A stretch of 50,520 bases of DNA. Origin: an uncultured Clostridiaceae bacterium (GTDB taxonomy: Bacteria > Bacillota > Clostridia > TANB77 > CAG-508). The stretch lies in the NCBI GenBank assembly GCA_958402495.1, contig CATXTS010000002.1, positions 1-50,520 on the forward strand. Direction: 5' to 3'. The notes beneath the pieces were generated by a model. It was not told the DNA's origin, did not search any database, and saw nothing but the letters and a program-made list of their open reading frames with translations. Shown here piece by piece: positions 3,184 through 30,932 of the stretch. Numbering within the stretch: position 1 is the first letter of the stretch; the number at the start of each line of letters is the position of its first letter. The position numbers and the translations under genes were made by a program.

Positions 3184-6100
3184 CTATCCTTTATCACCAA
3201 AAAAATGAACTAATTTCATATAATTAAATAATTTTTCAACATAATCTATATTTAAATCAGGCCAATGAAAACCTAATTTATTCAAATAATGACAAGTCAA
3301 GGTATTATCTGTTTGAATAATGTGATTATAAATAAAATCATCATTTTTGGTAAAGTCATTAATAATTCCCTTGATTTTTGATTGTTGAGAAACATTGGCA
3401 GAAAATTCTTTTACAGTTTCTATAAAATCTTCCGGTGATAATATAGAAATATTATAATGTAATTGCTTCATATAATCAAGTAAAGTAGAAACTTTTATGA
3501 AGTGAGGATTATATATATGAAAAATTTTATTATAGCAAGGGGTTGACCATATAATTTTACAGATAGCCTGTGCAGAAAAATCTACTGGAGAAAATTCTAA
3601 AGTATTTTCTAAAAGAGAGGAGGAAATACAACCCATTTCTAAAATAGATTTTAATCTTAGGTAAATAGAATTTTCTTCTATATTTTTTTGAAAAACACCA
3701 TCAGAATACCTACCTGTTAAGTCACCAATTCTATAGATAGAAGCTTGCAATCCATCAGACATAGCTGAAAGTACTAAAGATTCAGCTATAAGTTTACTTT
3801 TTGAATAAACATTATCATCAAAAGATTGACCAGAAAAAAAAGTATGTTCATCAAAAATAGAATTGGAATTATTTTGTTCAATTAAATAATTACCGGAGAT
3901 AGTCATTGTTGAAATATAATGTAACGGTAAAGAAAATTGATTACAAAGTTGTATTATATTTTTAGTACCTTGAATATTCGTTCTTTGAAAATCTGAATAA
4001 TTTCCATAATGCTTTACATTGGCAGCACAGTGAATGACGGCATTTACATTATTCTTAATAAAAGATAAATTAGTGGAATCTAAACCAATCATTTCCTCGT
4101 TAATATCTGATTCAATACAAATAACATATTTTTGAATAAGCGTATCGTAACGATTAGAAAAATAGAAATGAAATTTATCAAGTAGCCTTTCTGTAATAGA
4201 AATATTTTCTTTTTTTCTAACAGCACAATAAATTTTTTTTATGAGCAAAGGATGGTCTAATAGTTGCGCTAGAATATGAATCCCTAAGAAACCAGTTGCG
4301 CCAGTAATTAAAAAAGTTAAAGATTCAGTAGTAGGAAAAGCCTCGTAATTTCTAGAAAGATTCTTAGCAAAAGTATCCAAAGAAAGAAACTTTTCAATAT
4401 CTAAATTAGTTTGCAATTCGTTTTCAGATAATAGATGGTCATATAATTGTCTAACAGTAGGATATTTATAAAAGTCATAAACCTTTAAATTTAAATTATA
4501 TTGGAAAAGATCTGTTAGAATATTGATAATAGCTAAAGAATCAGCTCCAAAATCAAAAATGTTATTATCGATTCCGAAGTTAGAAAGATTTAATTTCTTT
4601 TTTATAGAAGAAATAATTTCCTCTTCTATAAGATTACGTGGTAATGTATAAATCTCATCTACAGTCATAGGTGTAATTTGATAATAACCTAAAGCTTTTC
4701 TATCTATTTTCCCATTAGGAGTATAAGGCAAACTATCTAATATAGTATAGGTGCTAGGAACCATATAATTTGGCAAGCAAGAAGTTAAATATTGTCTAAG
4801 TTCCTTTAGATTAATAGTCATAGTACAAGAAAGGAAAGCATTTAAGCAAACGGTATAATTATCAGACTTTATAATAACTGCTGATTTTATGTTGGCTGTA
4901 GGACAAAATCGATTAATCGTATTTTCAATTTCATCTAATTCAATGCGGAGACCATGGATTTTTACTTGATTATCACTTCTACCTTTACAAATTATGGAAC
5001 CATTTGATAACCAAAAGCCAATATCGCCAGTTTTATATAAAGTAGAGTTTGGTAAATAAGGATTTATTAGATAACGTTCTTTTGTAATGGAATCTTTATA
5101 TAAATAACCTCTTCCAACACCATCACCTGCAATATAAATTTCACCATATGTTTTAGGAGGTAATAAAGAAAGATTCTTATCTAGTATATAAATTTGTGTA
5201 TTATCAATTGGTTCTCCAATAGTAATCGTATCTAAATTTGATACATCTTTTACAGTAGAAAAAATAGTTGTCTCAGAGGGACCATATCCATTATAAACTA
5301 TACAATCAGGTGCAATAGATTTAATTTTGTCCACTAAAGATTTTGGAAGTTGCTCACCAGCTAGCATTATATACTTTAAGTTTTGAAAACCGTTAATACT
5401 TTGATTCTCTAAGTGAAAACGCATAATAGAAGGTGTAGATTGTATAATTTCAATTTGATTTTCTAAAAGAAGCCTTTCTAATTTTATAGTAATTTTTTGT
5501 TGAGATTCATTTGTTAAAAACAATTTAAGTCCACTACACAAAGAAACAATCGTCTCAAATATAAAAATATCAAAGGATACTGTAGTAATAGAAATGATAG
5601 AGTGTGGTATACCATCTTTTAAATATGCAATTTTATTTTTCATAGAAGAGACAAAATTAGACAAATTTTTATGAGTTAGCATAACACCCTTTGGATTACC
5701 TGTAGAACCAGAGGTATAAATGATATAAGAAAGGTCATCTGGCTGTGAAATAGAAGAAAGATTATCTATATTTACATTTGTATAAATAAAACGATTTTTT
5801 AAATCAGCAAAAATAATCTCTCCATTAAAACAAAAGTGATGGATTTTTTCTTCTAAATCTTCTTGTGACAATAATATTTTACTTTTACTATCGGTAAGCA
5901 TGTAACGAATTCTATCATCTGGGTATTCTGGATCAATAGGAATATAAGATGCTCCAGATTTCAAAACAGCTAAAATGCAAATAATCATTTCAAAACTACG
6001 ATGTGTCATAATAGCAATAATATCATTATTCTTAATATTTTTATTTCTTAAATAATAAGCTAAATGATTAGCCTTATCATTTAATTGCTCATATGTAAAT

Positions 6101-7542
6101 TGTTGATTTTCAAAAACAAGTGCAATGTGATTAGGGTTTTTAGCCACTTGTTCCTCAAAAAAATCTACAATCGTCTTATGTTTATCATAAACCAGTTGTG
6201 TATCGTTAAAATCATATAATAATTTTTGCTTTTCTTCAGGTGTAACAATCTCTATATCTTGAATGCATAAATTATCAGAAGAAAGAATTTGCTCAATCAT
6301 ATATAGAATTCTAGCATGTATATCTGTAATATCCTCTTTAGAATATTTAGATAAACGATAATCATAAGCAATATTTAAAGAACCCTCATCATTCATATCA
6401 AATAAATGAATTTGCATAGAATCTGCTACAAAATCATTAAAAGTCCATCTGACTTCGTAATCTACGCCAGCGGTATTCTTATTAGTTCTCGTATTTTGAT
6501 AAGAAATTAAAATATCATATAAGTTGGGTTGAGAGGGATTTTTAGCACGAATATGCTCTAGAATATTTTGATATGGATATTTCTGATGGCGAAACATAGC
6601 CAAGGCATCCATAGCAATTGTTTTAATAAAGTCAGAAAAAGAAGATTCGTTATGAATACAAAAACGAAAAGGAACGGTACTAATAAACATACCAGGCGTA
6701 TTTTTTTCTGTATAAGTGGTTCTATTTAAAATAGGAGTGCCTAAAACAAAATCGTCTAATTGAGAAACACGACCAATATAAATAGCATATACAGCCATAA
6801 AAAAATTAAAAATAGATACTTTATTTTGGGCGCAAAAAGTCTGTATACGTTCTAACTGTGAACATGGCATTACAAATAATTCTCTGCTGGCTATACAAGA
6901 ATCATTTGTGGATGCGTGTACAGAGGGAATCACACCTATTTCTGGTATAGTTTCAAACATAGTATCCCAATAGGCTTTATCTTTTTCAAATCTTTCACTA
7001 GAAAGATATTCTTTTTCAGCATCAATATAAGAAAGATAAGAGGTAGCTGCAACAGGATTGTCTTTTTTTTGTAATAGAGCCGTATAAATATTGATAACTT
7101 TGCTAGCAAGAAGACCAGCTGTACAAGCGTCAGAAATTAAATGATGGGCAGTAATAACAAAGCCACCATGACCATTTGAAAATTGAAACATTTTGAAACA
7201 AAATAATAAATTATCTATTAAAGAAATAGGGGCACTTACCATGTCCTTTTCTAATTTTTTTAAATCTTCATCTGTGTTTAAAGACACAATACTAATAGGA
7301 AAATTAGAAACAGAGGAAATGTATTGTTGTACATTTCCGGCATTATCAAATGTAAGTTTTAAACGAAAACTATCGTTATCTTTCACAAAGGTTTCGATAG
7401 CTTTTTTTAGTAAATCAAAATCAACTACTTCATGTAGCAAAACTGTACCACAAATGTGATTGATAGCGGTATCTTTATAAAATTGTTCCGTAAGCCAAAT
7501 AGATTGTTGAGGATTGGTTAAATCATAATATTTTCTTTCCAT
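3184..7542 (-). CDS. Single-module non-ribosomal peptide synthetase, domain order C-A-T-R (terminal thioester reductase)
   Basis: 1452-aa ORF. C domain: HHLISDA (aa ~133). A domain: YTSGSTGNPKG (aa ~610), NGYGPSETT, YKTGD, GRSDNQVKIHGLRIEL, PNGKIDRKAL. T domain: FGADSLA (aa ~997). R domain: ITGATGFLG (aa ~1077) and YSKSK. Confidence 0.95.
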   Translation of the reverse strand: MERKYYDLTNPQQSIWLTEQFYKDTAINHICGTVLLHEVVDFDLLKKAIETFVKDNDSFRLKLTFDNAGNVQQYISSVSNFPISIVSLNTDEDLKKLEKDMVSAPISLIDNLLFCFKMFQFSNGHGGFVITAHHLISDACTAGLLASKVINIYTALLQKKDNPVAATSYLSYIDAEKEYLSSERFEKDKAYWDTMFETIPEIGVIPSVHASTNDSCIASRELFVMPCSQLERIQTFCAQNKVSIFNFFMAVYAIYIGRVSQLDDFVLGTPILNRTTYTEKNTPGMFISTVPFRFCIHNESSFSDFIKTIAMDALAMFRHQKYPYQNILEHIRAKNPSQPNLYDILISYQNTRTNKNTAGVDYEVRWTFNDFVADSMQIHLFDMNDEGSLNIAYDYRLSKYSKEDITDIHARILYMIEQILSSDNLCIQDIEIVTPEEKQKLLYDFNDTQLVYDKHKTIVDFFEEQVAKNPNHIALVFENQQFTYEQLNDKANHLAYYLRNKNIKNNDIIAIMTHRSFEMIICILAVLKSGASYIPIDPEYPDDRIRYMLTDSKSKILLSQEDLEEKIHHFCFNGEIIFADLKNRFIYTNVNIDNLSSISQPDDLSYIIYTSGSTGNPKGVMLTHKNLSNFVSSMKNKIAYLKDGIPHSIISITTVSFDIFIFETIVSLCSGLKLFLTNESQQKITIKLERLLLENQIEIIQSTPSIMRFHLENQSINGFQNLKYIMLAGEQLPKSLVDKIKSIAPDCIVYNGYGPSETTIFSTVKDVSNLDTITIGEPIDNTQIYILDKNLSLLPPKTYGEIYIAGDGVGRGYLYKDSITKERYLINPYLPNSTLYKTGDIGFWLSNGSIICKGRSDNQVKIHGLRIELDEIENTINRFCPTANIKSAVIIKSDNYTVCLNAFLSCTMTINLKELRQYLTSCLPNYMVPSTYTILDSLPYTPNGKIDRKALGYYQITPMTVDEIYTLPRNLIEEEIISSIKKKLNLSNFGIDNNIFDFGADSLAIINILTDLFQYNLNLKVYDFYKYPTVRQLYDHLLSENELQTNLDIEKFLSLDTFAKNLSRNYEAFPTTESLTFLITGATGFLGIHILAQLLDHPLLIKKIYCAVRKKENISITERLLDKFHFYFSNRYDTLIQKYVICIESDINEEMIGLDSTNLSFIKNNVNAVIHCAANVKHYGNYSDFQRTNIQGTKNIIQLCNQFSLPLHYISTMTISGNYLIEQNNSNSIFDEHTFFSGQSFDDNVYSKSKLIAESLVLSAMSDGLQASIYRIGDLTGRYSDGVFQKNIEENSIYLRLKSILEMGCISSSLLENTLEFSPVDFSAQAICKIIWSTPCYNKIFHIYNPHFIKVSTLLDYMKQLHYNISILSPEDFIETVKEFSANVSQQSKIKGIINDFTKNDDFIYNHIIQTDNTLTCHYLNKLGFHWPDLNIDYVEKLFNYMKLVHFFGDKG

Positions 7543-7784
7543 AAATATGTTCTCCTATGTTATCCATTTTTATAAAAAGATTATATAACAAAACACCAAA
7601 AAAGCAACAATTTGTTTTATGATTTGTGAAAAAAATAAATAAAAAAACAAAGAATAATAAAAAACGACAAAATACAATCAATTAAGAAAAAAGTAAATAT
7701 CTAAAAAAATAAAGGCAGAATGATTAAAACAAAAATAATTGGAAAAAATATGAATAGTAAAAAAGAAAGGGAGGAACTGACAAA

Positions 7785-8942
7785 GTGTCGGGAAAAAATA
7801 TGTATCGATATAAAAAAGCGAGCAAACAAAAATTAAAAAATATAATGACCATATTAGCCATTGTGGTATTAACTTCTATTTTAAGTATTCTATTATATAA
7901 GCTATATGAAGGAATTGATGTACATACATATAACCAACAGACAAGTCAATTAAATAGTCAAGCAATTAAAATAACACAAACCGTAGAAAATGTAAAAGAA
8001 CAAAGCAAACAAATAGCAGATGTAGTAGAAGAAGTAACCTCTTGTGTCGTAGGTATTTCCAAAATAAAAAATGCCGGAAATACGATATTTTTAAGAGACG
8101 GGACTACACAGCTAGGACTAGGAACGGGTATGATTGTATCTGAAAATGGTTATATTTTATCTAATGAACATGTGACAGGTGCCAAATATAGTAATTGCTA
8201 TGTAACTTTAGAAAATGGAAGAACATATACAGCCAGTGTAGTGTGGTCTGATTCTAATATTGATTTATCTATCTGCAAAATCAATATTAAAAATTTACCA
8301 TATGCAAAACTAGGCGATTCTGACAATGTAAGAGTAGGAGAGATAGTATATGCTATAGGCAATCCAATTGGTTTTGAATTTCAAAGAACAGTAACTTCTG
8401 GCATTATTAGTGCTACAAGTAGAACCGTAAGAATTGATGAAAATGAGAAAAGTACCTATATGGAAGATTTAATTCAAACAGATGCTACCATCAACCCAGG
8501 AAATAGTGGAGGACCATTAATAAATCCGGATGGTAATGTAATAGGAATTACCTCTGTAAAAATTACTTCCGCAGAAGGGATAGGATTTGCTGTACCAATT
8601 AATGTAGTAAAACCAATTATCGAAAGATATTTAAAAGAAGGGAAATTTGAAGAGGCTAGTTTAGGTATTTTTGCTTATGATAAAGAAGTAATTCCATATC
8701 TAGATGAAAAAATTGAATTTAATAAAGGTATCTATGTAGCACAAATTTCTTTAGATTCACCAGCAGCTAAGACAAACTTAAAAGTAGGAGACGTCATTAC
8801 TAAAATTGACAATTTAGAATTAACTAAAATGTGTGATTTAAGATGTTATATTTATACAAAATCACCAGGAGAAGAAGTGACACTTACCGTTTATAAAAAC
8901 GGAAAAGAACAAACCATAAAAGTTACTTTAGGAATGAAATAA
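7785..8942 (+). CDS. HtrA/DegP-type trypsin-like serine protease with N-terminal TM anchor and C-terminal PDZ domain
   Basis: 385 aa. Contains an SNEHV (His) region, the catalytic-Ser motif GNSGGPL, and a PDZ-like C-terminus (GIYVAQISLDSPAAKTNLKVGDVI). RBS GGGAGG precedes the GTG; an alternative ATG lies at 7800. Confidence 0.88.
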   Translation: MSGKNMYRYKKASKQKLKNIMTILAIVVLTSILSILLYKLYEGIDVHTYNQQTSQLNSQAIKITQTVENVKEQSKQIADVVEEVTSCVVGISKIKNAGNTIFLRDGTTQLGLGTGMIVSENGYILSNEHVTGAKYSNCYVTLENGRTYTASVVWSDSNIDLSICKINIKNLPYAKLGDSDNVRVGEIVYAIGNPIGFEFQRTVTSGIISATSRTVRIDENEKSTYMEDLIQTDATINPGNSGGPLINPDGNVIGITSVKITSAEGIGFAVPINVVKPIIERYLKEGKFEEASLGIFAYDKEVIPYLDEKIEFNKGIYVAQISLDSPAAKTNLKVGDVITKIDNLELTKMCDLRCYIYTKSPGEEVTLTVYKNGKEQTIKVTLGMK

Positions 8943-14045: not shown

Positions 14046-14122
14046 GTGCCTGTAGTTTAGCTGGATAGAATGGCAGGCTACGAACTTGCAGATCGGGGGT
14101 TCGAATCCCTCCAGGCACACCA
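14046..14122 (+). tRNA. Island-borne complete tRNA-Arg (anticodon ACG)
   Basis: GTGCCTG TA GTTT AGCTGGATA GAAT G GCAGG CTACGAA CTTGC AGATC GGGGG TTCGAAT CCCTC CAGGCAC A CCA. The stems differ from the split host copy by compensatory changes, while the T-arm is identical. Confidence 0.9.
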
Positions 14123-14130
14123 TTTGGTAA

Positions 14131-14172
14131 AACATAGTTCTCAAGCTAGTTTGAGAACTATGTTCTTTTTTT
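14131..14172 (+). terminator. Intrinsic terminator after the island tRNA-Arg, overlapping the integrase 3' end
   Basis: Perfect 14-bp stem: AACATAGTTCTCAA (14131-14144) pairs with TTGAGAACTATGTT (14151-14164). CTTTTTTT follows. Confidence 0.75.
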
Positions 14173-15562
14173 GAGGCTTTTTCTTTAAAAAGTATCGCTT
14201 TACTTGTGTAGACTTACTTTCAGCATTTTTTGTTTTCCCCTGAAATTCCTCAAAATTTACTCTTTCAAACTCCTTTTTCTTTCGTTCTTCTGATACATGA
14301 ATATAGTAAAAATCTGTTGTTTCAAATTCGGCATGTCCCATTAATTCTCGTAAAACCTCTTTATCCATACCTTTTTCACTCATTAAAGTTGCAAAAGAAT
14401 GTCTAAAACCATAAATTGTCATGTGTTCTAATTTATATTTCTTTATAAATTCTGTAATCTTTTTAGTTAATCTTTCTGGAACATAAGGTGTTCCAATAGT
14501 ATTTAAAAACACATATTGCTCATTATCCCATTCCTCACCATATTGTAGATTATTCATTTTTTCTCTTTTTAAGTTAAGTAGCATTTCTTTTAATCTTGGA
14601 GTCATTGGAATATTACGATAACTTTCTGTGGTTTTTAAATCTCCATCGGTCATTATATGTCCTGTAATATTCATTTCATCATCATATAATGTAATGTCTT
14701 TATAAGCATTTTCTACTCTGATTTTGTTTTGATTAAAGTGTACCGATTTCCATTTCAAACCACAACCTTCTTCTGGTCGCATACCTGTTTGAAGTAAGGT
14801 AGCAAAAAGTAGTGCAAATGGTCTTTTATCTTTTTCACATACATCAAGCCATACTCTTTGTCTATCTTCTGTTAAATAACATACCTTTGCTACCTTTGCT
14901 CTTTTCTTCTTTTGAAATTTTAAATCAAAATTAGGTACTTCTTTTATTAATCCTTTTTTATCTTTAGCATAAGCTAAGACTGCTCTAATAAGCAAGAATA
15001 AATCTTTTGCTAGTCTAGGTGTTTGTTGCCTTTTCTCATTTATATAGTTTTCTACCATTTCTTTACTGATTTCGCTAACATGATAATTTTTAAAATCAAT
15101 CATTACATGATTTTTAATTGTGTTTATGTAAGTTTCAACAGTTTTTAAACTAATCGTTTTATTTGTGCTAGGATTTACTTGTTTCTTTTTCCAATTAAGC
15201 CATTCCTTTGCTATATTTGGAAACAAAGTATAATCATCTGCTAACAATTCTATTTTCCTTTTTTCTTTTTCTTCATTAAATTCAGTAAACTTATTTAATT
15301 CTGATGAACACTCTTCTGTAAATACTTTGACATTAGGATTTGTACTATTTTTTTGAATATCAAAATATATATCAGTAATTAGTTCTCCTAATCTTTTTCT
15401 TGCTTCTTTTTCTGTTCTTGCTGTCCTTGATAATCTTGGATTTCTATCAACTCCTTCCATTATTGAATTAAGGGCTAACGTTACTCTTGCCTCATAGCTA
15501 TTTCCTTTTTTCCTTATTGTAACTGTTCCTTTTGGTGCTCTTTGTCTATTTATCTTTTTCAT
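14141..15562 (-). CDS. int: Tyrosine recombinase / phage-type integrase
   Basis: C-terminal catalytic region: TGMRPEE (Arg), GFRHSFATL (His-x-x-Arg), GHAEFETTDFYYIH (His/Tyr). Start is set at the ATG preceded by GGAAGGAG; the track ORF extends 5 codons further to a TTG. Confidence 0.9.
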   Translation of the reverse strand: MKKINRQRAPKGTVTIRKKGNSYEARVTLALNSIMEGVDRNPRLSRTARTEKEARKRLGELITDIYFDIQKNSTNPNVKVFTEECSSELNKFTEFNEEKEKRKIELLADDYTLFPNIAKEWLNWKKKQVNPSTNKTISLKTVETYINTIKNHVMIDFKNYHVSEISKEMVENYINEKRQQTPRLAKDLFLLIRAVLAYAKDKKGLIKEVPNFDLKFQKKKRAKVAKVCYLTEDRQRVWLDVCEKDKRPFALLFATLLQTGMRPEEGCGLKWKSVHFNQNKIRVENAYKDITLYDDEMNITGHIMTDGDLKTTESYRNIPMTPRLKEMLLNLKREKMNNLQYGEEWDNEQYVFLNTIGTPYVPERLTKKITEFIKKYKLEHMTIYGFRHSFATLMSEKGMDKEVLRELMGHAEFETTDFYYIHVSEERKKKEFERVNFEEFQGKTKNAESKSTQVKRYFLKKKPQKKNIVLKLA

Positions 15563-15666
15563 GATAACTCCTTCCAAAATATAAATAGTTTAAAAGGGCT
15601 CGAAACTTAATATCAAGATATATCTTATCACGTTTAAAACAAGAAATCAGCCCTTTTTTCTAGTTA

Positions 15667-16246: not shown

Positions 16247-17092
16247 ATGACTGATGAACAATATATTGATATTGCAATAGATATATCTTCAAAGGCTAAA
16301 TATCCTTATGGTGCTATTGTAGTAAAAAATGGGAAGATTATTGGTAGAAGTGATGATAAGACTTTAATGGAAACAAGTATGTATTCTCATGCAGAACTAG
16401 AGGCAATAGAAAGCGCATCAAAGAATAAAAATCTTTATGGAGATTTAAAAGGTGCAACAATATATGTATCTTGTGAACCTTGTATGATGTGTATGGGAGC
16501 AATACTATACGAAAAGTTTTCAAAAATCGTTTATGCAGCAACACTACAAGATAGTAATGATAATTATTGTCCAGAGATGATTACTAATATAGATGAGTTA
16601 ACAAAATACGGAAATACTAAAATTGAAATAATAAAAGAATTACATAGAGAAAAGGCAGTAGAAATTTTGAAACAACACAAAGATAAAATTAAAAATAGAA
16701 TTTTAATTACAGGTGCTGTATTATCATCAAATGAGGCTTCAACTCAAACATATAATAAAATTACATCAATAATAGATAAGCATAAATTTTTAATTTCTAG
16801 CCCAATAGATACTATGAATTTTAAAGGTAATGACTATGAAAGATATGAGAGAGCAATGGATTTGTTAAGAGATACCAAAAAAATTATTGCAGAAATGAGT
16901 ACTACATCAACAGGTCAAGGTATGGAATTACAAGAAGCGACTAATCTACATATTCCAATATTGGTTATTGCTAAAAATGGTAGTAAAATATCGGGGCTAG
17001 TTAAGGGATGTAAAAATATAAAGGATATCATATTTTATGATAACATAGAAAGTATACAAGAAAAAATTAAAACATTTATTGAGGAGGAATAA
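16247..17092 (+). CDS. Fusion of a CMP/dCMP-type zinc deaminase domain with a nucleoside 2-deoxyribosyltransferase / DNPH1(Rcl)-like domain
   Basis: N-terminal HAELEAI ... CEPCMMCMGA (zinc-binding H-A-E / C-x-x-C). C-terminal ILITGAVLSS ... STGQGMELQEA matches the DNPH1/NDT catalytic-Glu block (S-x-G-x-G-x-E-L-x-x-A). Confidence 0.75.
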   Translation: MTDEQYIDIAIDISSKAKYPYGAIVVKNGKIIGRSDDKTLMETSMYSHAELEAIESASKNKNLYGDLKGATIYVSCEPCMMCMGAILYEKFSKIVYAATLQDSNDNYCPEMITNIDELTKYGNTKIEIIKELHREKAVEILKQHKDKIKNRILITGAVLSSNEASTQTYNKITSIIDKHKFLISSPIDTMNFKGNDYERYERAMDLLRDTKKIIAEMSTTSTGQGMELQEATNLHIPILVIAKNGSKISGLVKGCKNIKDIIFYDNIESIQEKIKTFIEEE

Positions 17093-17093
17093 T

Positions 17094-17645
17094 ATGAGTA
17101 ATTATTTGTTAATACATGGAAGTTTTGGAAGTCCTTTTGTAAATTGGTTTCCATATTTAAGAAATGAAATAGAAAAAAGAGAATTAGTAGTCTATACTCT
17201 GGATTTTCCCACAGGAGTAGGTTATCAAAATTATAGTAATTGGGAAAAAGTATTAGAAAGTTATGTAAGTGCTGGAATAGTAAATGAAAATACTATTATT
17301 TTTGCTCATTCTATTGCTCCAATATTTGTTTGCCATTTTTTAGTTAGTCACAATATTAAAGTAAAAAGATTAGTATTTGTATGTGGATTTAATAATTATT
17401 TAGGAATTAACGAAGAATATGACAATGTAAATGAAACCATGTATTTTGATAATTTAGAAGATGTAAAAAAATTAGCACAAGAGATTATTTGTTTTTATTC
17501 CAAAAATGATCCCTATGTGAAATATGAAGTTGAAAAAGAATTTGCAGACACAATAGCAACAAAGCAAATAGTAATTGATGATGGAGGACACTTGAATTCT
17601 GAAAGTGGATATACAGAATTTAAAGAATTATTAGAATTCATATAA
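17094..17645 (+). CDS. Alpha/beta serine hydrolase, YdeN/RBBP9-like
   Basis: LLIHGSFGSP near the N-terminus and the nucleophile elbow FAHSIAP; about 183 aa. Start set at the ATG after GAGGAGG, 1 nt after the upstream stop. Confidence 0.7.
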   Translation: MSNYLLIHGSFGSPFVNWFPYLRNEIEKRELVVYTLDFPTGVGYQNYSNWEKVLESYVSAGIVNENTIIFAHSIAPIFVCHFLVSHNIKVKRLVFVCGFNNYLGINEEYDNVNETMYFDNLEDVKKLAQEIICFYSKNDPYVKYEVEKEFADTIATKQIVIDDGGHLNSESGYTEFKELLEFI

Positions 17646-17661
17646 AGATATTGGAGGAAAT

Positions 17662-18228
17662 ATGAAAATTTTAATTTTAAGTTTCAGTAGTAATCAAGTA
17701 AATGAAGATAGTTTTATTCCTAATAAAATTGGTTTAACTTTTTCTTGTGTAGAAGAATGTGAAAAAGAATTAAAAAAATTAGGAAAAGAAGTAGAACATA
17801 TCTGTATAAATAAAAAGAATATAAAGAAATGCCTAGCTTGTGGAAAAAGAGGTTGGGGAATTTGTTTAGAGAAACATAAATGTATTCAAAAAGATGATTT
17901 TAATGAGATTTATGAATATATGAATAATTTTAATGCCTACATATTTATTACTCCAGTTTATTTTTGGGAAATGAGCGAATCTGCAAAAACATTCTTTGAT
18001 AGACTAAAAAGATGTGATGCTTTTAACGATAATTCTAAAATCAAAGGAAAGAAAGTTATTTGTATCGCTTGTGCAGGTGGAAGTGGAAATGGAACAGAAG
18101 AAACATTAAAATCTTTTGATATATTAAACCACTTCTTAAAGACAGAAATAGTTGGAAGAATACCAGTTACTAAAGTTACTTTTGAAAGTCAAAAAGAAAA
18201 AATTAGAAAAACGGTAAATTCTTTATAA
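17662..18228 (+). CDS. Flavodoxin-fold (NADPH-dependent FMN reductase / iron-sulfur flavoprotein-like) protein
   Basis: 188 aa. Contains CLACGKRGWGIC, then FITPVYFWEMSESAKTFFDR, which is typical of the FMN_red fold. RBS GGAGG. Confidence 0.6.
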   Translation: MKILILSFSSNQVNEDSFIPNKIGLTFSCVEECEKELKKLGKEVEHICINKKNIKKCLACGKRGWGICLEKHKCIQKDDFNEIYEYMNNFNAYIFITPVYFWEMSESAKTFFDRLKRCDAFNDNSKIKGKKVICIACAGGSGNGTEETLKSFDILNHFLKTEIVGRIPVTKVTFESQKEKIRKTVNSL

Positions 18229-18326: not shown

Positions 18327-18635
18327 TTAACACATTCTAATATCAAATTTATTGCGTCTGAAAATCCGTATTTTATAGAATTTTTCATTTTCATAAAATC
18401 CAATAATATTTATTTTGTCAATATAACTGTCTAAACTATTTCTGACACCTTCTAATTCTTCTTGTGTATGTGGCAAATCTTCTATTATGCAAAATAGCTT
18501 TTCATAACTATCATTATCCTTAGTTAAAGTTGCAATCCTTTCCTTGTCCTTTTCCGTTAAAGAATATAAATTCTCTTCTCTACATTCAAATAGTGTGTTT
18601 AAAACAGTTTCTTTTTTTACTTTTTCCTCTGACAT
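18327..18635 (-). CDS. Hypothetical protein (102 aa)
   Basis: ORF with a GGAGGTAG RBS 5 nt before ATG 18635. No motif recognised. Confidence 0.5.
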   Translation of the reverse strand: MSEEKVKKETVLNTLFECREENLYSLTEKDKERIATLTKDNDSYEKLFCIIEDLPHTQEELEGVRNSLDSYIDKINIIGFYENEKFYKIRIFRRNKFDIRMC

Positions 18636-18719
18636 ATTTACTACCTCCAATATTAATTTGATAGTAGTATAACGTGCTCAATTCAATTTGTCAGCCTATT
18701 TTTATGATTTTTTAAATAT

Positions 18720-20246: not shown

Positions 20247-20729
20247 TTATTTCTTTTGATTTGCGTACTGTAATCTTTCAGTTACAAATTTTAATTGCTT
20301 CCTGTACGATAAGATAAATAGAACTGTTAATGCTAAAAATAATAAACTAATTTTATAGAATATGTTATTTATAAAACTATAATATATCTCTAATATTGTT
20401 AAACATAAAAATACTGATATATAAGTCCTATACTGATTTGCTTCTCTTTGTAATAATTCAACTTTATTATCTGTTTTACTACAATTTATGTATTGACTAT
20501 ATTTTACACAAGTTATTATTTTAAATTTTTCTAATATTGGTTTTATTATTATAGATCCTACCCTACTTAATACTAAACCAATAAAGTAATACTCAATGAT
20601 GGCTATTATTATATTATCATTAAAAAAGTTGTTTTGCATGATTTCTGTGAATATTGTTCCAAATATGATTCCAGGTAATAGATAGTTTATAAAATGATAA
20701 ACTTCCATTTTCTCAATTATTTTTTCCAT
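20247..20729 (-). CDS. Small integral membrane protein (about 4 TM), third gene of the MBL operon
   Basis: 160 aa. Hydrophobic segments: FINYLLPGIIFGTIF, IIIAIIEYYFIGLVL, YISVFLCLTILEIYY, ISLLFLALTVLFILS. Overlaps the upstream gene by 17 nt. Confidence 0.6.
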   Translation of the reverse strand: MEKIIEKMEVYHFINYLLPGIIFGTIFTEIMQNNFFNDNIIIAIIEYYFIGLVLSRVGSIIIKPILEKFKIITCVKYSQYINCSKTDNKVELLQREANQYRTYISVFLCLTILEIYYSFINNIFYKISLLFLALTVLFILSYRKQLKFVTERLQYANQKK

Positions 20730-21186
20730 TTATTTTCATCCTTTCGAGAGAATTATCTAGCATTGTATATATATCTTCTTTTCTATTTCTATATAACATA
20801 ATTTCTTCATCTGTAATATCAAAACCAAATCCAATTTCTTTTCCTTTACAATAATTTACTTTTGTAGAATTGTTAGGAAGATAAATGTTCTTATCATGTA
20901 TATTTTTTAGTTGTTTAATTTTTTTAGTATTACATGAAATAATAATAATATCTTTTTCTGGCAATGTAACTATATTTTGTATAATATAGTTACTAGTTAA
21001 AGGATCATGACCAATTATCATTAAAATATTGGGTTGATGAGTGGGAATACTATTTAATACAGTTATATCTCTATCAGAATTTTTGTTATCTTTTAGAGTA
21101 TATATATGAAACAGTTCATATATATACTCTATTCTAGCAATAACTTCTTCGTTAGATACATTATTTTTACAAATTAAATATCTCAT
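20713..21186 (-). CDS. Hypothetical cytoplasmic protein (157 aa), middle gene of the MBL operon
   Basis: The ORF overlaps the MBL gene stop by 4 nt (ATGA). No motif recognised. Confidence 0.6.
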   Translation of the reverse strand: MRYLICKNNVSNEEVIARIEYIYELFHIYTLKDNKNSDRDITVLNSIPTHQPNILMIIGHDPLTSNYIIQNIVTLPEKDIIIISCNTKKIKQLKNIHDKNIYLPNNSTKVNYCKGKEIGFGFDITDEEIMLYRNRKEDIYTMLDNSLERMKINGKNN

Positions 21187-22049
21187 ATTCCTAGATTTCC
21201 TGTAACTGTTCTATTTTGTGAAATTATGTTTTCATCTAATGTTAATAGTCCTTTTTCTTTAGTATTCATTACCCTATAACCTTTTGTATTTAGTTTGTCT
21301 GATCCTCCATTTGAATTGCCAGTATTATCTGAAATTATATATTGCTTATCTAAATCTTTCTTAGTTTCATTAAATATCCTTTCACCTATATCTGCATTTC
21401 CATGATGAGGCAATTGTATTATTTTAAAATCCCCTAAATTCTCTGTCATTACAGATTCGAATGATGAATCTCCTGTTAGTAATATTTTTTTATTATCCAA
21501 TGTAATTTCTAAATGAATGCTTGTTGCATTTGTAATTGTTGAACTATCTATAGTATCTCCTTCTGTAGAATCTAATCCTTTTGCTGCCGCATCTAATATA
21601 TAATCCTTACCTGGTCCTGATATTTTAATTCCATCTGATATTTCTATATGTTCAAAAGCATCCTTTAAATTATTTCCAGATAATTGAGCTATGTTGTCAT
21701 ATGTATCTAATAGTTGTCTTTTTAAAGATTCTCTATTTTTCCTTCCATCATCAATAATATCCAAAAGTTTATCTACATATTTTAATAGCAATACAGTAGT
21801 TATTTCTGATGTTTTACCTTTTTCTACTAGTATAGGAATCCCCTTAAAATGATCATCGTCATTGTGTGATAATATTACTTTTACATTTGAATAATTGTGT
21901 TCTTTCATATAGCTAATTACCCAATTGGCATAATCTTCACATCCACAATCATATATTACTAGCTCTTTATTGTTATCTATTACAAAGCAATCTCCATTAT
22001 TTTTACTCTCATCTTCACATTCTTGCGAACTTAAAACATAAATTTTCAT
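21183..22049 (-). CDS. Metallo-beta-lactamase-fold hydrolase (ComEC/Rec2-like subtype; possible nuclease)
   Basis: 288 aa. Contains VILSHNDDDHFKG (H-x-D-x-D-H variant of HxHxDH), LLTGDS and QLPHHGN. Confidence 0.8.
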   Translation of the reverse strand: MKIYVLSSQECEDESKNNGDCFVIDNNKELVIYDCGCEDYANWVISYMKEHNYSNVKVILSHNDDDHFKGIPILVEKGKTSEITTVLLLKYVDKLLDIIDDGRKNRESLKRQLLDTYDNIAQLSGNNLKDAFEHIEISDGIKISGPGKDYILDAAAKGLDSTEGDTIDSSTITNATSIHLEITLDNKKILLTGDSSFESVMTENLGDFKIIQLPHHGNADIGERIFNETKKDLDKQYIISDNTGNSNGGSDKLNTKGYRVMNTKEKGLLTLDENIISQNRTVTGNLGI

Positions 22050-22077
22050 TCAAATTCTTCCTTTCTCTTAAAAACTT

Positions 22078-22115
22078 AAAAAAAATTGGTTTAAAACATA
22101 TTTGTTTTAGACCAA
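22078..22115 (-). terminator. Terminator-like hairpin plus U8, only about 29 nt upstream of the MBL start codon
   Basis: Minus strand: TTGGTCTAAAAC-AAATAT-GTTTTAAACCAA (11 of 12 bp paired), followed by TTTTTTTT. Confidence 0.5.
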
Positions 22116-22215
22116 CTATTCTAGTTTTTCAATTTTTGTTTTTAAAAACATATTGGTCTCCTTTCTAGAAACCAATACAAAAGTTCGCTACTTTACAAAT
22201 GTAACTATTTGTTCT

Positions 22216-22259
22216 ATAATAAGTATGTATAAATTCTTGGCGGAATTCATACTTATTAT
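22216..22259. promoter_or_regulatory. Long composite stem-loop in the ATPase-MBL spacer
   Basis: Perfect 12-bp arms: ATAATAAGTATG (22216-22227) pairs with CATACTTATTAT (22248-22259). An inner AATTC/GAATT stem is nested inside. Confidence 0.4.
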
Positions 22260-22308
22260 GAGCCATCTTTTGTATGGTTCTTTTTTTGTTTCTTTAACGA
22301 CTAACTTT

Positions 22309-23628
22309 TTAAAAGTCATTTAAATTATTTTTAAAGTTGCTTAAAAATAAATCTATTTGCTCTCTATCTGGGTGGCATGAAATTTTTCTATGTTTATATA
22401 GATTAGATACAGATGCATCTCCTTTTACTCTATTACCATCAATTTGCAAATTAATTAATTTATTAACTTGAATATTATCACTCTCACAGTCTATTATAAA
22501 TATTGTATCTTGTTTAAAAATTTTTTTATTATTTTGATTTACAATATCAAAGATTTCAGGGCTTAATGTAGTAAAAATAATTTGTGCATTTTGATTTGGC
22601 ATTTCACTAAATAATTTTATAATTAGTTCCACTAAATCCTTATGTAAGTTTTGTTCTATTTCATCTATTGCTAATACACCATTTTTATCTATTATTTCAT
22701 TTACATATCTTATTAAATTTAAAAATCTTTCTGTTCCTGTTGATAACATATTTCTAGTAATTTTACTTCCATCCTTTAGTATAAACACTAACTCTTCATA
22801 TTTACTATCAGTATCTATCATAACATCTTTTATTTTAGGATCTACAACTCTTACTAATGTTCTTAAAGAATCAGGAGATTTTTTAAACCAATCTATATAT
22901 TTTAGTTCTTTATAATTATAATCTTCACTTGTGTCAATAGTTGCAGAGTTCTTTATATAATGCTTGACAAATGTTTTACAATAATTATATTTCTCCTCTA
23001 ATTCACTTTTTCTGTCTATATCTATATCTGTTATATTTTTAAAATATCTATTAATATAATATACTTGTCCTTCTTTGGCATCATCTATTGCAATAATAGG
23101 AGTTGGCTTTTCCTTATATTTTTTTCTAAAACCTAAATATTCATTTTTTATTTTTTTACTTATACCGTTAAAAAATATTTTATATGTATAGTATCCAGTC
23201 AATTCTTTTGTTTCAGCTACTATATACATTTCTATTTCTAATTTTGTATCTTCATTTTTTCTTCTAAGGTTTTGAACTGTAATATTAGTTCCAGCATTTA
23301 TACTATCAAGCATTTCTATAATTTTTTTTCTATCATCAAAATTATTATCTTTTTCTAGTAATTCTTTTATGCTGTCCATCTTGTCATTTATATCAAATTG
23401 TATTATAGGTGATACTAAAAGCTGTCCAATCATATTTATTGCCCTTAATATGCTTGTCTTTCCACTAGCATTTCCTCCTATTATACCTATTAGCTTATTA
23501 ATATAAATTCCTTCTTCTATTTTTATTACAGAATTCAATGTATCTTTATTTCTACTTTGGGAAATAAAATCAAGCATTATTGGTTCTGATATACCTAAAA
23601 AATTATCAATAAAAATTTTAGTAAACAT
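22309..23628 (-). CDS. ABC/SMC-like AAA ATPase (AAA_15/AAA_21 type) typical of defence systems
   Basis: 439 aa. Walker A GGNASGKTS, signature-like LSTGTERF, Walker B VLAIDEIEQNLH. Confidence 0.85.
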   Translation of the reverse strand: MFTKIFIDNFLGISEPIMLDFISQSRNKDTLNSVIKIEEGIYINKLIGIIGGNASGKTSILRAINMIGQLLVSPIIQFDINDKMDSIKELLEKDNNFDDRKKIIEMLDSINAGTNITVQNLRRKNEDTKLEIEMYIVAETKELTGYYTYKIFFNGISKKIKNEYLGFRKKYKEKPTPIIAIDDAKEGQVYYINRYFKNITDIDIDRKSELEEKYNYCKTFVKHYIKNSATIDTSEDYNYKELKYIDWFKKSPDSLRTLVRVVDPKIKDVMIDTDSKYEELVFILKDGSKITRNMLSTGTERFLNLIRYVNEIIDKNGVLAIDEIEQNLHKDLVELIIKLFSEMPNQNAQIIFTTLSPEIFDIVNQNNKKIFKQDTIFIIDCESDNIQVNKLINLQIDGNRVKGDASVSNLYKHRKISCHPDREQIDLFLSNFKNNLNDF

Positions 23629-23652: not shown

Positions 23653-23682
23653 ACTATATCATATTTTTTTATAGCATGTCAA
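23653..23682 (-). promoter_or_regulatory. Putative promoter of the ATPase gene
   Basis: Minus strand: TTGACA (23682-23677), 18 nt, TATAGT (23658-23653). It lies 25 nt upstream of the ATG region. Confidence 0.5.
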
Positions 23683-23683
23683 T

Positions 23684-23730
23684 AGTTATTACGATTTTTC
23701 TAATAAGCTATTAGAAAAATCGTAATAACT
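23684..23730. repeat. Perfect 22-bp inverted repeat (3-nt spacer) abutting the ATPase -35 box
   Basis: AGTTATTACGATTTTTCTAATA-AGC-TATTAGAAAAATCGTAATAACT. Partial arm copies (TTATTAGAAAAA, ATCGTATTAGAAAAC) occur at ~23779-23814. Confidence 0.85.
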
Positions 23731-23881
23731 GTTTAACAATACACTTATATTATGCTATTTTTTATAATATTTATTGTGTTATTAGAAAAACATAGATTAA
23801 TCGTATTAGAAAACATCATAAGGCTAGGCTTTTTCTATGTATATCTCTGTAAATTGTGCAAAAACTTTCTGCACAATTTAA

Positions 23882-24550
23882 TTATTGTATGTATTTCCAT
23901 AAATATTTATCTGTTCTTAATAGTTTTGATTCAAACTTTGTTAAAAATACATCATAAGGATAACCAGCTTCAATATATTTTTCTGTAAGTTCCATTTTAT
24001 ATTCTTCTAATAGTTCTAAATATTTTTGTTTAAAGCAATTTTTACAAAGCCATTCTATACCTTCTTTAGATATTTTTGCTTTTCCATTTTCATAATATTT
24101 ATAACGACTATCTGTCGCTTTATTCATCTTTATAATATTATTTTTTATAGTGCCAGAAACTTTGTTAAAATAATTTGGTAATTCATATACAAACATATCA
24201 TTATTCCAAAATTTTTTCGGAGTAACTTTTAATAGTTCTTCATATTGTTCTATTCTCATAGTAAAGAAATCTATATCAGCATCTATCATGTTTTTTTCTG
24301 TTTGGAAATAAACATCAGTTAGCCAATAAAATCCTTCAGCTAAAATATAATTTGTTCTGTCAATTAATTTATTCTGTTTCCATCTACAAGTTGAATGTTT
24401 CTTGATTATAAATTGAACTGCTCTTTGTAAATCTATATATGTTATTTCTTTACCAGTTTTAGTTTTTAATTCTAATAATTTTAATTTGTTTAAAGCACTA
24501 TCATAAGACATAAAAATTTTTTCTGTTTCTTTTACTGAATCAGTAATCAT
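23882..24550 (-). CDS. Hypothetical protein (222 aa), island maintenance or regulatory region
   Basis: ORF with AAGGAGGTAATA before the ATG. No motif recognised. Confidence 0.6.
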   Translation of the reverse strand: MITDSVKETEKIFMSYDSALNKLKLLELKTKTGKEITYIDLQRAVQFIIKKHSTCRWKQNKLIDRTNYILAEGFYWLTDVYFQTEKNMIDADIDFFTMRIEQYEELLKVTPKKFWNNDMFVYELPNYFNKVSGTIKNNIIKMNKATDSRYKYYENGKAKISKEGIEWLCKNCFKQKYLELLEEYKMELTEKYIEAGYPYDVFLTKFESKLLRTDKYLWKYIQ

Positions 24551-25559: not shown

Positions 25560-25611
<52 letters not shown>

Positions 25612-28964: not shown

Positions 28965-30932
28965 CTATTTTGTTCCAACCGCCACAATCTTGTTGTGAGG
29001 ATTATAAGTATCTTTAGAAAGAAGCGTCTTGGAAACAACCGTACCATTTTTCTTTAAAATCTTATAAGTTTGTGTTTTACAACCATTAGAACCATTTTGA
29101 ATTACTTTTGTTTTTCCTTTAGCTAAACTACTGTCATTTTGATAAACCGTCTTAAAAGCAATACTTTGAATAACAGAAGATTGTATTTCTACTTCATAAT
29201 CGTCGCTCGTTTTTAAACCAAAAATCTGAAAATAAATCTTACCGCCAGAACCAGAACAAACAATTTTAATAGGGTAATTTCTATTATTTTTAAACTTAAA
29301 ATCTGGTCCACCCCATGAAACAGTAGCATCTCTTCCAGCTTTTACATAGCCTGGATTAAAACCGTGATTGGTCCTTTCTACAATATCTAAATTCGCATAA
29401 AGAACAGCATTATATAAAGTAGAAGAAACTTGACAAATACCACCACCAATACCAGTAGTAACTTCACCATTAGAATAGACAGCCGCTGATTTAAATCCAG
29501 CAGCAGCGGTTCTTTTACCAACTACCTGATTATAAGAAAAAGTTTCACCTGGCATCATAACTGTACCATTAATTTTAGAAGAAGCTAAGCGAATATTCGT
29601 ACTTCTATTAGCATTGCTAGTACTATAAGTTGTAGAAAAGCTAGCTAATAAATCTGGAAAAGCCTCTGTACCAATTTGATTAGTCGTCACTTTAGGAGAC
29701 AAAACTTTTAGAGGAATGGTATAAGATTCTTTATCTTCTGCTAACATAGCAATTGCCTCTTCTATAGAAATAGCAAAATCAACGCCATTTACATGAGGAT
29801 GTACAACATAAGGATTTGTCGTATAATAGGCATCTTGAGCAGCCTTATAAATTTCAGAGTGAATAGTATGTATATCTATGGTTTTGGCTGTTTTTGAAAC
29901 AACAGGAATGGTAATAGAAGTGGTACAATCCAAATTATTTAAACAATAAATCATTTGCTCTTTTAATTCGAAACTATTAATTTCTACACCATCTATTCCC
30001 TTAGTAATAACCAATTGATTACCATCGACATAATAGCTAGGTTCTATCATACGGTCAGGTAAGTTGGTTTCAATTTCTTTTATCAAAGAATCTAAAGTTT
30101 CATCACTATAAGAAAAATTAGGACCAATATCTGTTTTAGAGAAAAGAGCTGCTAAAATAGTAAAATTATTTTCAAAAATGTTGCCATCTCTACCGATTTT
30201 ATAAGCTAAGTCAACCGCTTTTACAGCATCAAAAGTAACATCAAACTGTTGAGCAAAAAAAGTTGTCTCGTATTCACCATGTTTTAAAGTAATTGGTTTT
30301 TCCAATTTTTCTTGAATAGCAGAAGTAACTTTTTCAATTGCTTCCTCTTTAGTCAAATTAGAAACATCTATACCATTAATAGAAATACCAGAAGTTATGG
30401 TATTGGTCTGTATATGACATAAAGCAAAGATAGTAGACAACAAAAGAAGTAGTAACAATAAAAAGAGCGTTACTAATAAAATAATCCAAACTTTTCTATG
30501 AGATTTTGTTTCTTTTACCATTGTATAAGAAGAAGCCGTTGTATCTAAAGAAGAATGAGAAGATAGTTCCGAAGAAGTAGTATCTTCTACTTTCTCAGGA
30601 ATATCTAGGTTACGAATACTTTTAACATCATTCTCTTGAGATATAGCCTCTTTATTATAAATAACCGTTTTTACTTCATCCATTGCCTCACAAGTCGCAT
30701 TAGTAATATCCTTCATATCCCTAGAAACAATAGTTGTAACACTTTCTTCTCCTACTTCCTCATTTCTAATTTCCGGCTTAACTATTGAAACTTCCTCTGA
30801 TTTAGGTTTTATTTCTAAATCAATAGGAGGTTTAGCTAAAATAGAAGAAGTATTAGTTTCTTTTGAAACTAATGGAGAAGCAATATTTGGTTCTATAGTA
30901 TTTAATTTTTTATTCTTTTTCTTTTTGCTCAT
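28965..30932 (-). CDS. VanW-family protein with N-terminal TM anchor and C-terminal G5 domain
   Basis: TM segment VWIILLVTLFLLLLLLLLSTIF. VanW core GGGICQVSSTLYNA. G5-like C-terminus KGKTKVIQNGSNGCKTQTYKI. Start set at the ATG after GGAGA. Confidence 0.85.
   Translation of the reverse strand: MSKKKKNKKLNTIEPNIASPLVSKETNTSSILAKPPIDLEIKPKSEEVSIVKPEIRNEEVGEESVTTIVSRDMKDITNATCEAMDEVKTVIYNKEAISQENDVKSIRNLDIPEKVEDTTSSELSSHSSLDTTASSYTMVKETKSHRKVWIILLVTLFLLLLLLLLSTIFALCHIQTNTITSGISINGIDVSNLTKEEAIEKVTSAIQEKLEKPITLKHGEYETTFFAQQFDVTFDAVKAVDLAYKIGRDGNIFENNFTILAALFSKTDIGPNFSYSDETLDSLIKEIETNLPDRMIEPSYYVDGNQLVITKGIDGVEINSFELKEQMIYCLNNLDCTTSITIPVVSKTAKTIDIHTIHSEIYKAAQDAYYTTNPYVVHPHVNGVDFAISIEEAIAMLAEDKESYTIPLKVLSPKVTTNQIGTEAFPDLLASFSTTYSTSNANRSTNIRLASSKINGTVMMPGETFSYNQVVGKRTAAAGFKSAAVYSNGEVTTGIGGGICQVSSTLYNAVLYANLDIVERTNHGFNPGYVKAGRDATVSWGGPDFKFKNNRNYPIKIVCSGSGGKIYFQIFGLKTSDDYEVEIQSSVIQSIAFKTVYQNDSSLAKGKTKVIQNGSNGCKTQTYKILKKNGTVVSKTLLSKDTYNPHNKIVAVGTK

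Follow-up and report, generated by a model that had tools for sequence, protein, structure and literature searches.

A PDC-M48-type membrane protein, an orphan protein and an MBL-fold hydrolase form a probable defence cassette of Clostridia

A set of 145 phage defence candidates (PDC) was drawn from genes embedded in bacteriophage exclusion (BREX), defence island system associated with restriction-modification (DISARM) or type I restriction-modification (RM) loci and includes PDC-M48, a two-family cassette, FAM_01875>>FAM_00178, that was seen 63 times, and by its authors' own statement the PDC candidates are predictions (Payne et al. 2024, 10.1101/2024.01.29.577857). Metallo-beta-lactamase (MBL) fold enzymes also occur in other defence systems. 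The Avs-linked MBLs are zymogens that are cleaved twice by a neighbouring protease and then act as Zn-dependent double-stranded DNA (dsDNA) nucleases (Evans et al. 2025, PMC12642450). HamMAB (Liu-DS5/HamMAB) is another validated combination of an MBL and a protease (PMC13069673), and 6A-MBL (Prok-E2_A, E1, JAB and MBL) is cited as a validated Pseudomonas aeruginosa defence in two sources (van den Berg et al. 2024, as cited in PMC13276650 and 10.1101/2025.09.30.679545). Here, we analysed a trio of overlapping genes in a 50,520-nucleotide stretch of contig CATXTS010000002.1 from an uncultured Clostridiaceae bacterium, hereafter the window. The three genes are as follows.

21183 to 22049, minus strand: g1, an MBL-fold metallo-hydrolase of 288 amino acids (aa)
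20713 to 21186, minus strand: g2, an alpha/beta protein of an orphan family, 157 aa
20247 to 20729, minus strand: g3, a four-helix membrane protein of 160 aa

The trio is probably a defence module of the PDC-M48 family that stands on its own and has the MBL as a catalytic component. It represents a Clostridia-specific, divergent three-gene branch of a widespread pair of membrane protein and MBL, and most likely acts against phage or foreign DNA. The clearest link is g3, which matched the PADLOC model PDC-M48A (PDLC04670) at 4.4e-45 over positions 1-159 of 164 and belongs to that family, whose canonical members scored 6e-66 to 1e-67; g3 also matched phrog_11864 at 3.6e-28. The match of g1 to PDC-M48B (PDLC04676) was 2e-19, with the best stretch at 14-130 of 357 positions, whereas canonical MBLs matched this model over the full length at 2.8e-180, 2.9e-153 and 6.4e-99. 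Because canonical MBLs reach 1e-99 to 1e-180, the MBL of the window is a divergent relative. The two genes by which PDC-M48 is defined are not adjacent in the window, as g2, which has no PADLOC model, lies between them. The original prediction had stated that the combination matches no named system; this did not hold, and the claim of novelty is partly lost because PADLOC already models g3 and, distantly, g1. What is new about the trio is the third gene, g2, and the divergent MBL clade.

The packing of the three minus-strand open reading frames (ORFs) was reproduced in the window sequence, with an ATGA stop/start overlap of g1 and g2 at 21183-21186 and a 17-nt overlap of g2 and g3 at 20713-20729. 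The order MBL-g2-transmembrane (TM) gene, with tight junctions, recurs in at least eight independent genomic contexts at protein identities of 39-93 %, and therefore the trio consists of genuine genes and not of chance ORFs. A fixed stoichiometry can only be called a reasonable inference from the overlaps. The neighbours were identified as predicted, namely AbiEi/AbiEii and an ABC-type ATPase (PADLOC matches of 2.3e-61, 2.1e-95 and 8.7e-36). Thus, of the candidate novel defence module that had been proposed, the conserved, mobile, self-contained cassette of three real overlapping genes with a defence-island context stands, and its novelty does not stand in full.

We then surveyed the loci that carry g2 (loci are labelled L plus a number). 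In all thirteen, g2 lies immediately downstream of the MBL gene and usually overlaps it, down to 28 % identity; g2 is always translationally coupled to the MBL gene. The third gene was PDC-M48A in ten of these loci, a different membrane protein with 2+2 helices in L093 and L094, and absent in the degenerate L092. The conserved unit is therefore an MBL, g2 and a four-helix membrane protein. The alternative third proteins (L093 7477-8145 and L094 7487-7900) have no hidden Markov model (HMM) similarity to PDC-M48A and share the 2+2 helices with a central soluble segment; the one in L094 is truncated.

The enzyme g1 carries a Lactamase_B domain (Pfam, 2.3e-8) and the metal motifs SHNDDDH (H62-x-D64-x-D66-H67), N174, D194 and LPHHG (H215-H216), so that the ComEC-like nuclease lineage and motifs of the original prediction were recovered with an intact active site. 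Across 84 TM- or g2-linked MBLs, the motifs H62-x-D/H64-x-D66-H67, N174, D194 and H215-H216 are essentially invariant, and g1 is accordingly predicted to be an active hydrolase. Beyond PDC-M48B, the PADLOC matches were RTasMBL (2.4e-13), LmuA-MBL (5.5e-12) and Avs1a (2.7e-7). The NCBIfam matches, Avs1a (1.1e-10) and ComEC/Rec2 (1.8e-6), were both far under the family cut-offs: 40.9 bits against 420 for the Avs1a equivalog NF041809, of which g1 is thus not a member, and 26.4 bits against 190 for TIGR00361, with only residues 19-85 aligned. Among named families, these defence MBLs and ComEC are the nearest to g1, and all of the matches fall well short of the family thresholds. A PDB sequence search with g1 gave spurious low-complexity matches only. 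By these features, g1 falls among the MBL enzymes of the ComEC/Avs1a-like lineage, and its metal site is fully conserved. In a neighbour-joining tree, the g2-linked MBLs form one monophyletic clade, in which segment lengths are rigid and the C-terminus carries an SDNTGxSNGGSD motif that is specific to the clade; g2 marks this Clostridia-specific MBL clade. A comparison of segment lengths found no zymogen-type large insertion specific to the g2-linked MBLs.

For the distribution of the family, a 38-sequence membrane-protein alignment was searched against one genome per species, which resulted in 233 relatives, and the best 80 loci were analysed with custom HMMs. An MBL gene abuts the membrane gene in 58 loci (46 in the order TM>MBL and 12 in the order MBL>TM), seven loci, all from Clostridia, show the order MBL-g2-TM, and eleven have an MBL within 4 kb of the membrane gene. 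Together, 76 of the 80 loci pair the two genes, which speaks for the PDC-M48 reading, as does the place of the MBL ahead of g2 in every g2 locus. No MBL was detected in the remaining four loci, two of which are cut by the contig end beside an E2-E1-JAB gene. The hosts of membrane gene and MBL include Bacteroidota, Proteobacteria, Nitrospirota, Candidate Phyla Radiation groups, Clostridia and others.

The contexts of the canonical pair speak for defence. It lies directly after replication gene A in P2-like coliphages, with convergent genes (L095, Peduovirus P2_4E6b 29118-30706; Escherichia coli NZ_CP032515.1 1076893-1078503), on 12-14-kb conjugative Clostridium perfringens plasmids, and in 45 of 5,426 complete E. 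coli genomes. The P2/P4 hotspot cargo was tested by Rousset et al. 2022, where an MBL is never mentioned (PMC9122126). The island of the window supports the same reading with its AbiE genes and AbiLi-like ATPase. A Pfam census of 128 immediate neighbours at 41 loci was headed by Peptidase_S24/LexA, C5/N4/N6 DNA methylases, Eco57I, ThiF, Prok-E2, phage integrases, transposases, AAA_15/AAA_21, reverse transcriptases, TIR, Fic and ResIII; the PADLOC version was uninformative, with redundant methyltransferase models filling the best 25 matches listed. Individual loci adjoin a methylase and MutH (L001), a type II RM system (L094), or HipA, SLFN and PLD (L092).

LexA_DNA_bind/Peptidase_S24 repressors were the commonest neighbours of the TM-MBL pair (5 of 128), and a LexA-S24-C5-methylase fusion stands beside the pair in L010 (809-2389). 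These neighbours hint at SOS or RecA-dependent control of the pair.

About fifteen of the 80 loci have a further architecture, in which a fusion of Prok-E2_A, ThiF (E1) and Prok-JAB of about 700-800 aa stands beside the membrane gene, typically between the MBL and TM genes. It is accompanied by an MBL of 370-390 aa and is found in L062 (6538-10504) and also in L028, L029, L031, L034, L056, L070, L078, L091 and others. This E2-E1-JAB architecture is probably 6A-MBL; if so, that system may include the PDC-M48A membrane protein as a component that has gone unrecognised.

Several points weigh against a PDC-M48-type defence module. PDC-M48 is itself a prediction only, and our literature search found its name in no paper's main text. 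The MBL of the window is only a distant and partial relative of PDC-M48B, and its nuclease activity and substrate are deduced from remote relatives, Avs1a being the example with a score of about a tenth of its cut-off. For g2, no homology to a protease or any other enzyme was detected, and no fold match was significant. Some TM-MBL loci lie among housekeeping genes (L007, L008), and the neighbour census is qualitative because it lacks a matched background control.

The original prediction could place no motif in the middle protein g2, which is a true orphan with no match in Pfam, NCBIfam, PADLOC or PDB sequences. An exhaustive profile search yielded 213 representatives after clustering at 50 %, each of them a standalone protein of about 145-155 aa, whereas a word-indexed search suggested about 30 clusters; none was found in the IMG/VR scan. 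Among 152 aligned members, C85 is conserved in all 152, E128 in 151, H60 and G59 in 149, and R18 in 148. In the AlphaFold2 (AF2) model of g2 (predicted local distance difference test, pLDDT, 90.2; predicted TM-score, pTM, 0.85), G59-H60 and C85 each lie at the C-terminal end of a strand; the two strands are consecutive, and a helix separates them. Foldseek searches with this model against PDB and BFVD gave nothing significant (best E 0.05), and nothing recurrent came from a permissive Pfam scan of 37 members and a PDB-sequence profile search. A catalytic role for g2 is conjecture, because the protein has neither homology nor a significant fold match.

Five candidate assignments of g2 were discarded. 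A clan-CD (caspase-like) protease was suggested by a His that is followed by a Cys, with the two residues at the ends of successive strands. This was rejected, as Foldseek gave PIGK a TM-score of 0.35 and a probability of 0.09, and procaspase-8, at rank 42, was at noise level; the Pfam and PDB sequence searches likewise gave it no support, and clan CD is kept only as a lead. A C-x5-R phosphatase was rejected because Arg/Lys at +6 is not conserved. For clan CE, the H-17-E spacing fits, although the H60-E77 helix predicted in the model would conflict with the clan-CE beta-hairpin. The g2 HMM matches no MBL ORF, which rejects a split-off domain of the longer MBLs of 350-390 aa. For Peptidase_U57 (YabG), a single match at 0.0046 among the 37 members is no more than noise once multiple testing is considered.

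The four hydrophobic helices ascribed to g3 are seen as four long helices in its AF2 model (pLDDT 89.6), and its fold has no match in PDB. The family alignment shows the invariant polar motifs P19-G20, Y48-x2-G51-x3-S55-R56-x2-S59, N98-x2-R101, Y142-x-K144-Q145 and R152.

From these elements, a working mechanism can be outlined. The MBL g1 would be the effector, a metal-dependent nuclease that degrades nucleic acid, most likely DNA; we draw this from the Avs-type MBLs, which are Zn-dependent dsDNA nucleases (PMC12642450), with no claim that g1 belongs to them. Kiwa KwaA and Zorya ZorAB are the analogies for the membrane protein g3, which would be a tether or a sensor at the site of phage DNA entry, the membrane. 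The middle protein g2 may be a licensing factor that holds the nuclease off until infection or turns it on, probably by thiol-dependent chemistry on the MBL, and it would sit in the middle slot that is filled by the E2-E1-JAB enzyme in the sister architecture. Where the cassette stands behind an AbiLi-like ATPase, a leader-peptide/terminator element could gate its transcription. The specific roles proposed for g2 and for g3 are each tentative, and the weight falls rather against each of them. In a bolder version, g2 would found an enzyme family of its own, in which a novel alpha/beta fold carries a Cys85/His60 (+Arg18/Glu128) active site, and would covalently license an MBL nuclease at the membrane, with PDC-M48A as the phage-entry sensor common to all three architectures; we regard this version as speculative and rather improbable.

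If the bolder version were true, g2 would be a third, hitherto unknown gating mode for defence MBLs, besides site-specific proteolysis (Avs, Hachiman) and ubiquitin-like conjugation (E2-E1-JAB). The window shows the pair to be a platform that takes different middle regulators, namely none, an E2-E1-JAB enzyme or g2. Such a view turns a bare prediction into testable hypotheses on how a dangerous nuclease is restrained at the membrane. Two tractable models are at hand, the canonical pair of E. coli and g2, a confidently folded family with no relative in the PDB and viral structure sets.

The roles may also be reversed, with g3 as an abortive-infection effector (by depolarisation or pore formation) and the MBL with g2 as a sensor or signal-processing hydrolase that cleaves, for instance, a nucleotide or a molecule derived from the phage. 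Nucleotides and small molecules are also among the substrates that MBL folds hydrolyse. The polar residues of g3 are strongly invariant within its helices, two unrelated 4-TM families of the same 2+2 topology fill the third position after MBL-g2, and small multi-TM proteins are effectors in many systems (PMC9122126). However, the closest characterised MBLs (Avs-type and ComEC) are DNA nucleases, and PADLOC groups g1-like MBLs with the effector genes of the DRT, Lamassu and Avs models. The convergent TM and MBL genes of the P2-like phages form no obvious enzyme-then-effector operon, and g3 gave no evidence of pore-forming features. We consider this reversal unlikely; naming g3 an effector is no better supported than naming it a sensor or an anchor.

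A second alternative concerns the gene upstream of the trio, which the original prediction had offered as the possible fourth member of the system. The ATPase and the spacer that separates it from g1 have the following features.

22309 to 23628, minus strand: AbiLi-like ABC/AAA_21 ATPase of 439 aa (Pfam AAA_21 1.4e-16, PADLOC AbiLi 8.7e-36)
22050 to 22308, minus strand: leader, the conserved ATPase-g1 spacer of 259 nt
22149 to 22179, minus strand: leader hairpin 1 (TATTGGTTTCT...AGACCAATA), with a 13-bp stem that sequesters the Shine-Dalgarno sequence of the micro-ORF
22116 to 22151, minus strand: leader micro-ORF of 11 codons, MFLKTKIEKLE and stop, with a GGAG Shine-Dalgarno, as read from the sequence
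22078 to 22115, minus strand: leader hairpin 2 with a U8 run, intrinsic-terminator-like, which begins 1 nt past the micro-ORF stop and ends 28 nt ahead of the g1 start

In a four-gene system, the AbiLi-like ATPase would be the sensor or motor, the MBL would replace the AbiLii nuclease, and g2 and g3 would be accessory, in a design like PARIS, Septu, Gabija and AbiL. Both Walker A (GGNASGKTS) and Walker B (LAIDEIE) are intact in the ATPase, and no AbiLii partner was found anywhere on the island among the window ORFs or by PADLOC. A similar ABC-type ATPase lies ahead of the MBL-g2 module in about six of eleven independent contexts, and the spacer between ATPase and MBL is conserved. The ATPases belong to two lineages of 26 % mutual identity, the second being a genuine AbiLi/AbiLii pair directly ahead of MBL-g2 and the different third TM gene in L093 and L094. 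Against this, an AbiLii already accompanies the AbiLi of L093, at least four contexts have the trio but no ATPase (L005/6, L015, L017 and L090), the canonical PDC-M48 pairs have none, and a terminator-like hairpin separates the ATPase from g1.

A further objection comes from L098, a metagenome locus (5001-8621). Its ATPase is of the same clade (64 % identity) and is followed by the same leader, behind which stands a complete cyclic oligonucleotide-based antiphage signalling system (CBASS) in place of the trio, with NucC (DUF6602, 1.5e-66) and a CD-NTase cyclase (1.2e-87). Because CBASS stands behind the same ATPase and leader, these flank an exchangeable cargo slot, and the arrangement points to a hotspot of cargo exchange behind an orphan AbiLi-like ATPase. 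The three genes of the cassette move together, and their slot is the one that CBASS occupies in a related element. It behaves as a CBASS-equivalent autonomous cassette; therefore, the four-gene reading is weakened and the defence reading is strengthened. The trio probably does not require the ATPase as a component, and we consider the four-gene system quite unlikely. The orphan ATPase could be a single-gene defence or a regulator.

The leader is conserved in the window, L012 (1740-1998), L097 (1848-2109), L001 (6873-7141), L016 (8421-8679) and L004, and also in L098 (6315-6562) ahead of CBASS; neither it nor the locus gave a real match to an Rfam family. RNAalifold found compensatory pairs in hairpin 1, which folds at -10 to -14 kcal/mol in five orthologues. 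Hairpin 2 folds at -12 to -18 kcal/mol in four of five orthologues, starts 1-4 nt past the micro-ORF stop and shows compensatory changes, and its stem co-varies in L098. An alternative pairing of the 3' arm of hairpin 1 with the 5' arm of hairpin 2 (-9 to -11 kcal/mol) is plausible. The orthologous micro-ORFs encode MSKIKIEKLE, MFLKIKFQKQE and MFFKIFFPKLE, each followed by a stop, and the one of L098 was read by eye from the alignment as MYYKILILLE and stop. The micro-ORFs have 10-11 codons and end in K-L/Q-E-stop. With CBASS behind the same leader in L098, the leader resembles an attenuator that is coupled to translation and serves toxic defence cargos which can replace one another. Its position ahead of either the trio or CBASS suggests that, in Clostridia, the transcription of toxic immune operons is controlled in a translation-coupled manner.

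Upstream of the ATPase, a near-perfect palindrome (23676-23739) overlaps the best promoter-like site (TTGACA-18-TATAGT with TG, 23682-23653) and may be an operator; in the Rfam search, it gave symmetric miRNA-like noise on both strands.

A third alternative, very unlikely in our view, is that the trio does not serve immunity and is instead a module for maintenance, addiction or exclusion of a mobile element, or a split ComEC-like device that processes DNA during element transfer or uptake: the ComEC-like motifs of g1, the name 'ComEC/Rec2 family competence protein' given to the E. coli homologue by the Prokaryotic Genome Annotation Pipeline (PGAP), and the position of the pair beside mob genes on small conjugative plasmids and on integrative islands fit it, whereas the ComEC channel and OB domains are absent, the ComEC match covers about 65 residues at 26 bits against 190, the cassette is interchangeable with CBASS and recurs beside RM, reverse transcriptase, TIR and Abi genes, and the pair sits in a P2 hotspot known for anti-phage cargo (PMC9122126). 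The PGAP name for the E. coli MBL is likely misleading.

The integrase-bearing island named in the original prediction was delimited as an 11.5-kb integrative element at tRNA-Arg(acg). The integrase (14141-15577) abuts the tRNA gene, the GC content is 0.23-0.26 inside the island and 0.29-0.35 outside, and two copies of a 22-nt direct repeat bound the element.

14093 to 14114, plus strand: attL, the 3' part of tRNA-Arg(acg), first copy of the 22-nt direct repeat
25582 to 25603, plus strand: attR, second copy of the repeat, TCGGGGGTTCGAATCCCTCCAG

Its cargo comprises the integrase, an HTH_17 excisionase-like gene, AbiE, the trio, the ATPase and a RepO-like gene. Three further plus-strand genes at 16247-18228 encode a MafB19/dCMP-type deaminase with a C-terminal extension (281 aa), a Ser_hydrolase protein (188 aa) and an FMN_red flavoprotein (188 aa). 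The deaminase has a weak PADLOC match to dCTP deaminase (3.1e-5), and the cluster may be a nucleotide-targeting defence or detoxification module. Two minus-strand ORFs, 23882-24550 (222 aa) and 18327-18650 (107 aa), had no match in any library.

Of the named systems, Lamassu, in which the SMC-like ATPase LmuB and LmuC accompany the effector LmuA, is not reproduced in the window. Only the MBL region of the LmuA model is matched by g1 (5.5e-12), and the ATPase matches the AbiLi and AriA models, with no LmuB among the best 25 matches listed. ComEC/Rec2 shares the MBL motifs SH-x-D/H-x-DH and HHG and the association of an MBL nuclease with a membrane component; however, the trio has no competence channel or OB domains (no Competence or DUF4131 Pfam match), and g3 is unrelated to ComEC. 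With AbiL, the locus shares an ATPase that matches AbiLi at 8.7e-36, and a real AbiLi/AbiLii pair precedes MBL-g2 in L093 and L094, whereas the window has no AbiLii ORF, the ATPase is followed by a 259-nt non-coding, terminator-containing leader, and in another element CBASS follows. Kiwa (KwaA and KwaB) and Zorya resemble the trio by functional analogy only, as a small multi-pass membrane protein with a cytoplasmic DNA-targeting partner. The PDC-M48A member of L062 matches KwaA weakly (3.4e-4), whereas the g3 of the window has no KwaA match at E <= 0.1, and KwaB, ZorAB and ZorCD are absent.

The likeness to 6A-MBL lies in the sister loci, where E2-E1-JAB occupies the middle position of g2 and is flanked by a PDC-M48A protein and a related MBL, although the window itself has no Prok-E2_A, ThiF, JAB or other ubiquitin-like machinery. 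The Avs1/2/4-MBL systems and HamMAB differ from the trio by their trypsin-, caspase- or subtilisin-like protease and their STAND or Hachiman sensor, they have no membrane partner of the g3 type, and the Avs1a score of g1 is ten-fold under the cut-off; the likeness is a defence MBL of the ComEC-like lineage beside a dedicated small partner, in a design where the nuclease would be licensed by a neighbouring enzyme. PDC-M48 comes nearest. The trio differs from it by the third gene g2 in between and by a g1 of a separate clade (2e-19, against about 1e-150 for canonical members), and shares with it the same membrane-protein family in g3, an MBL of the same broad lineage in g1, and a mobile, defence-island context.

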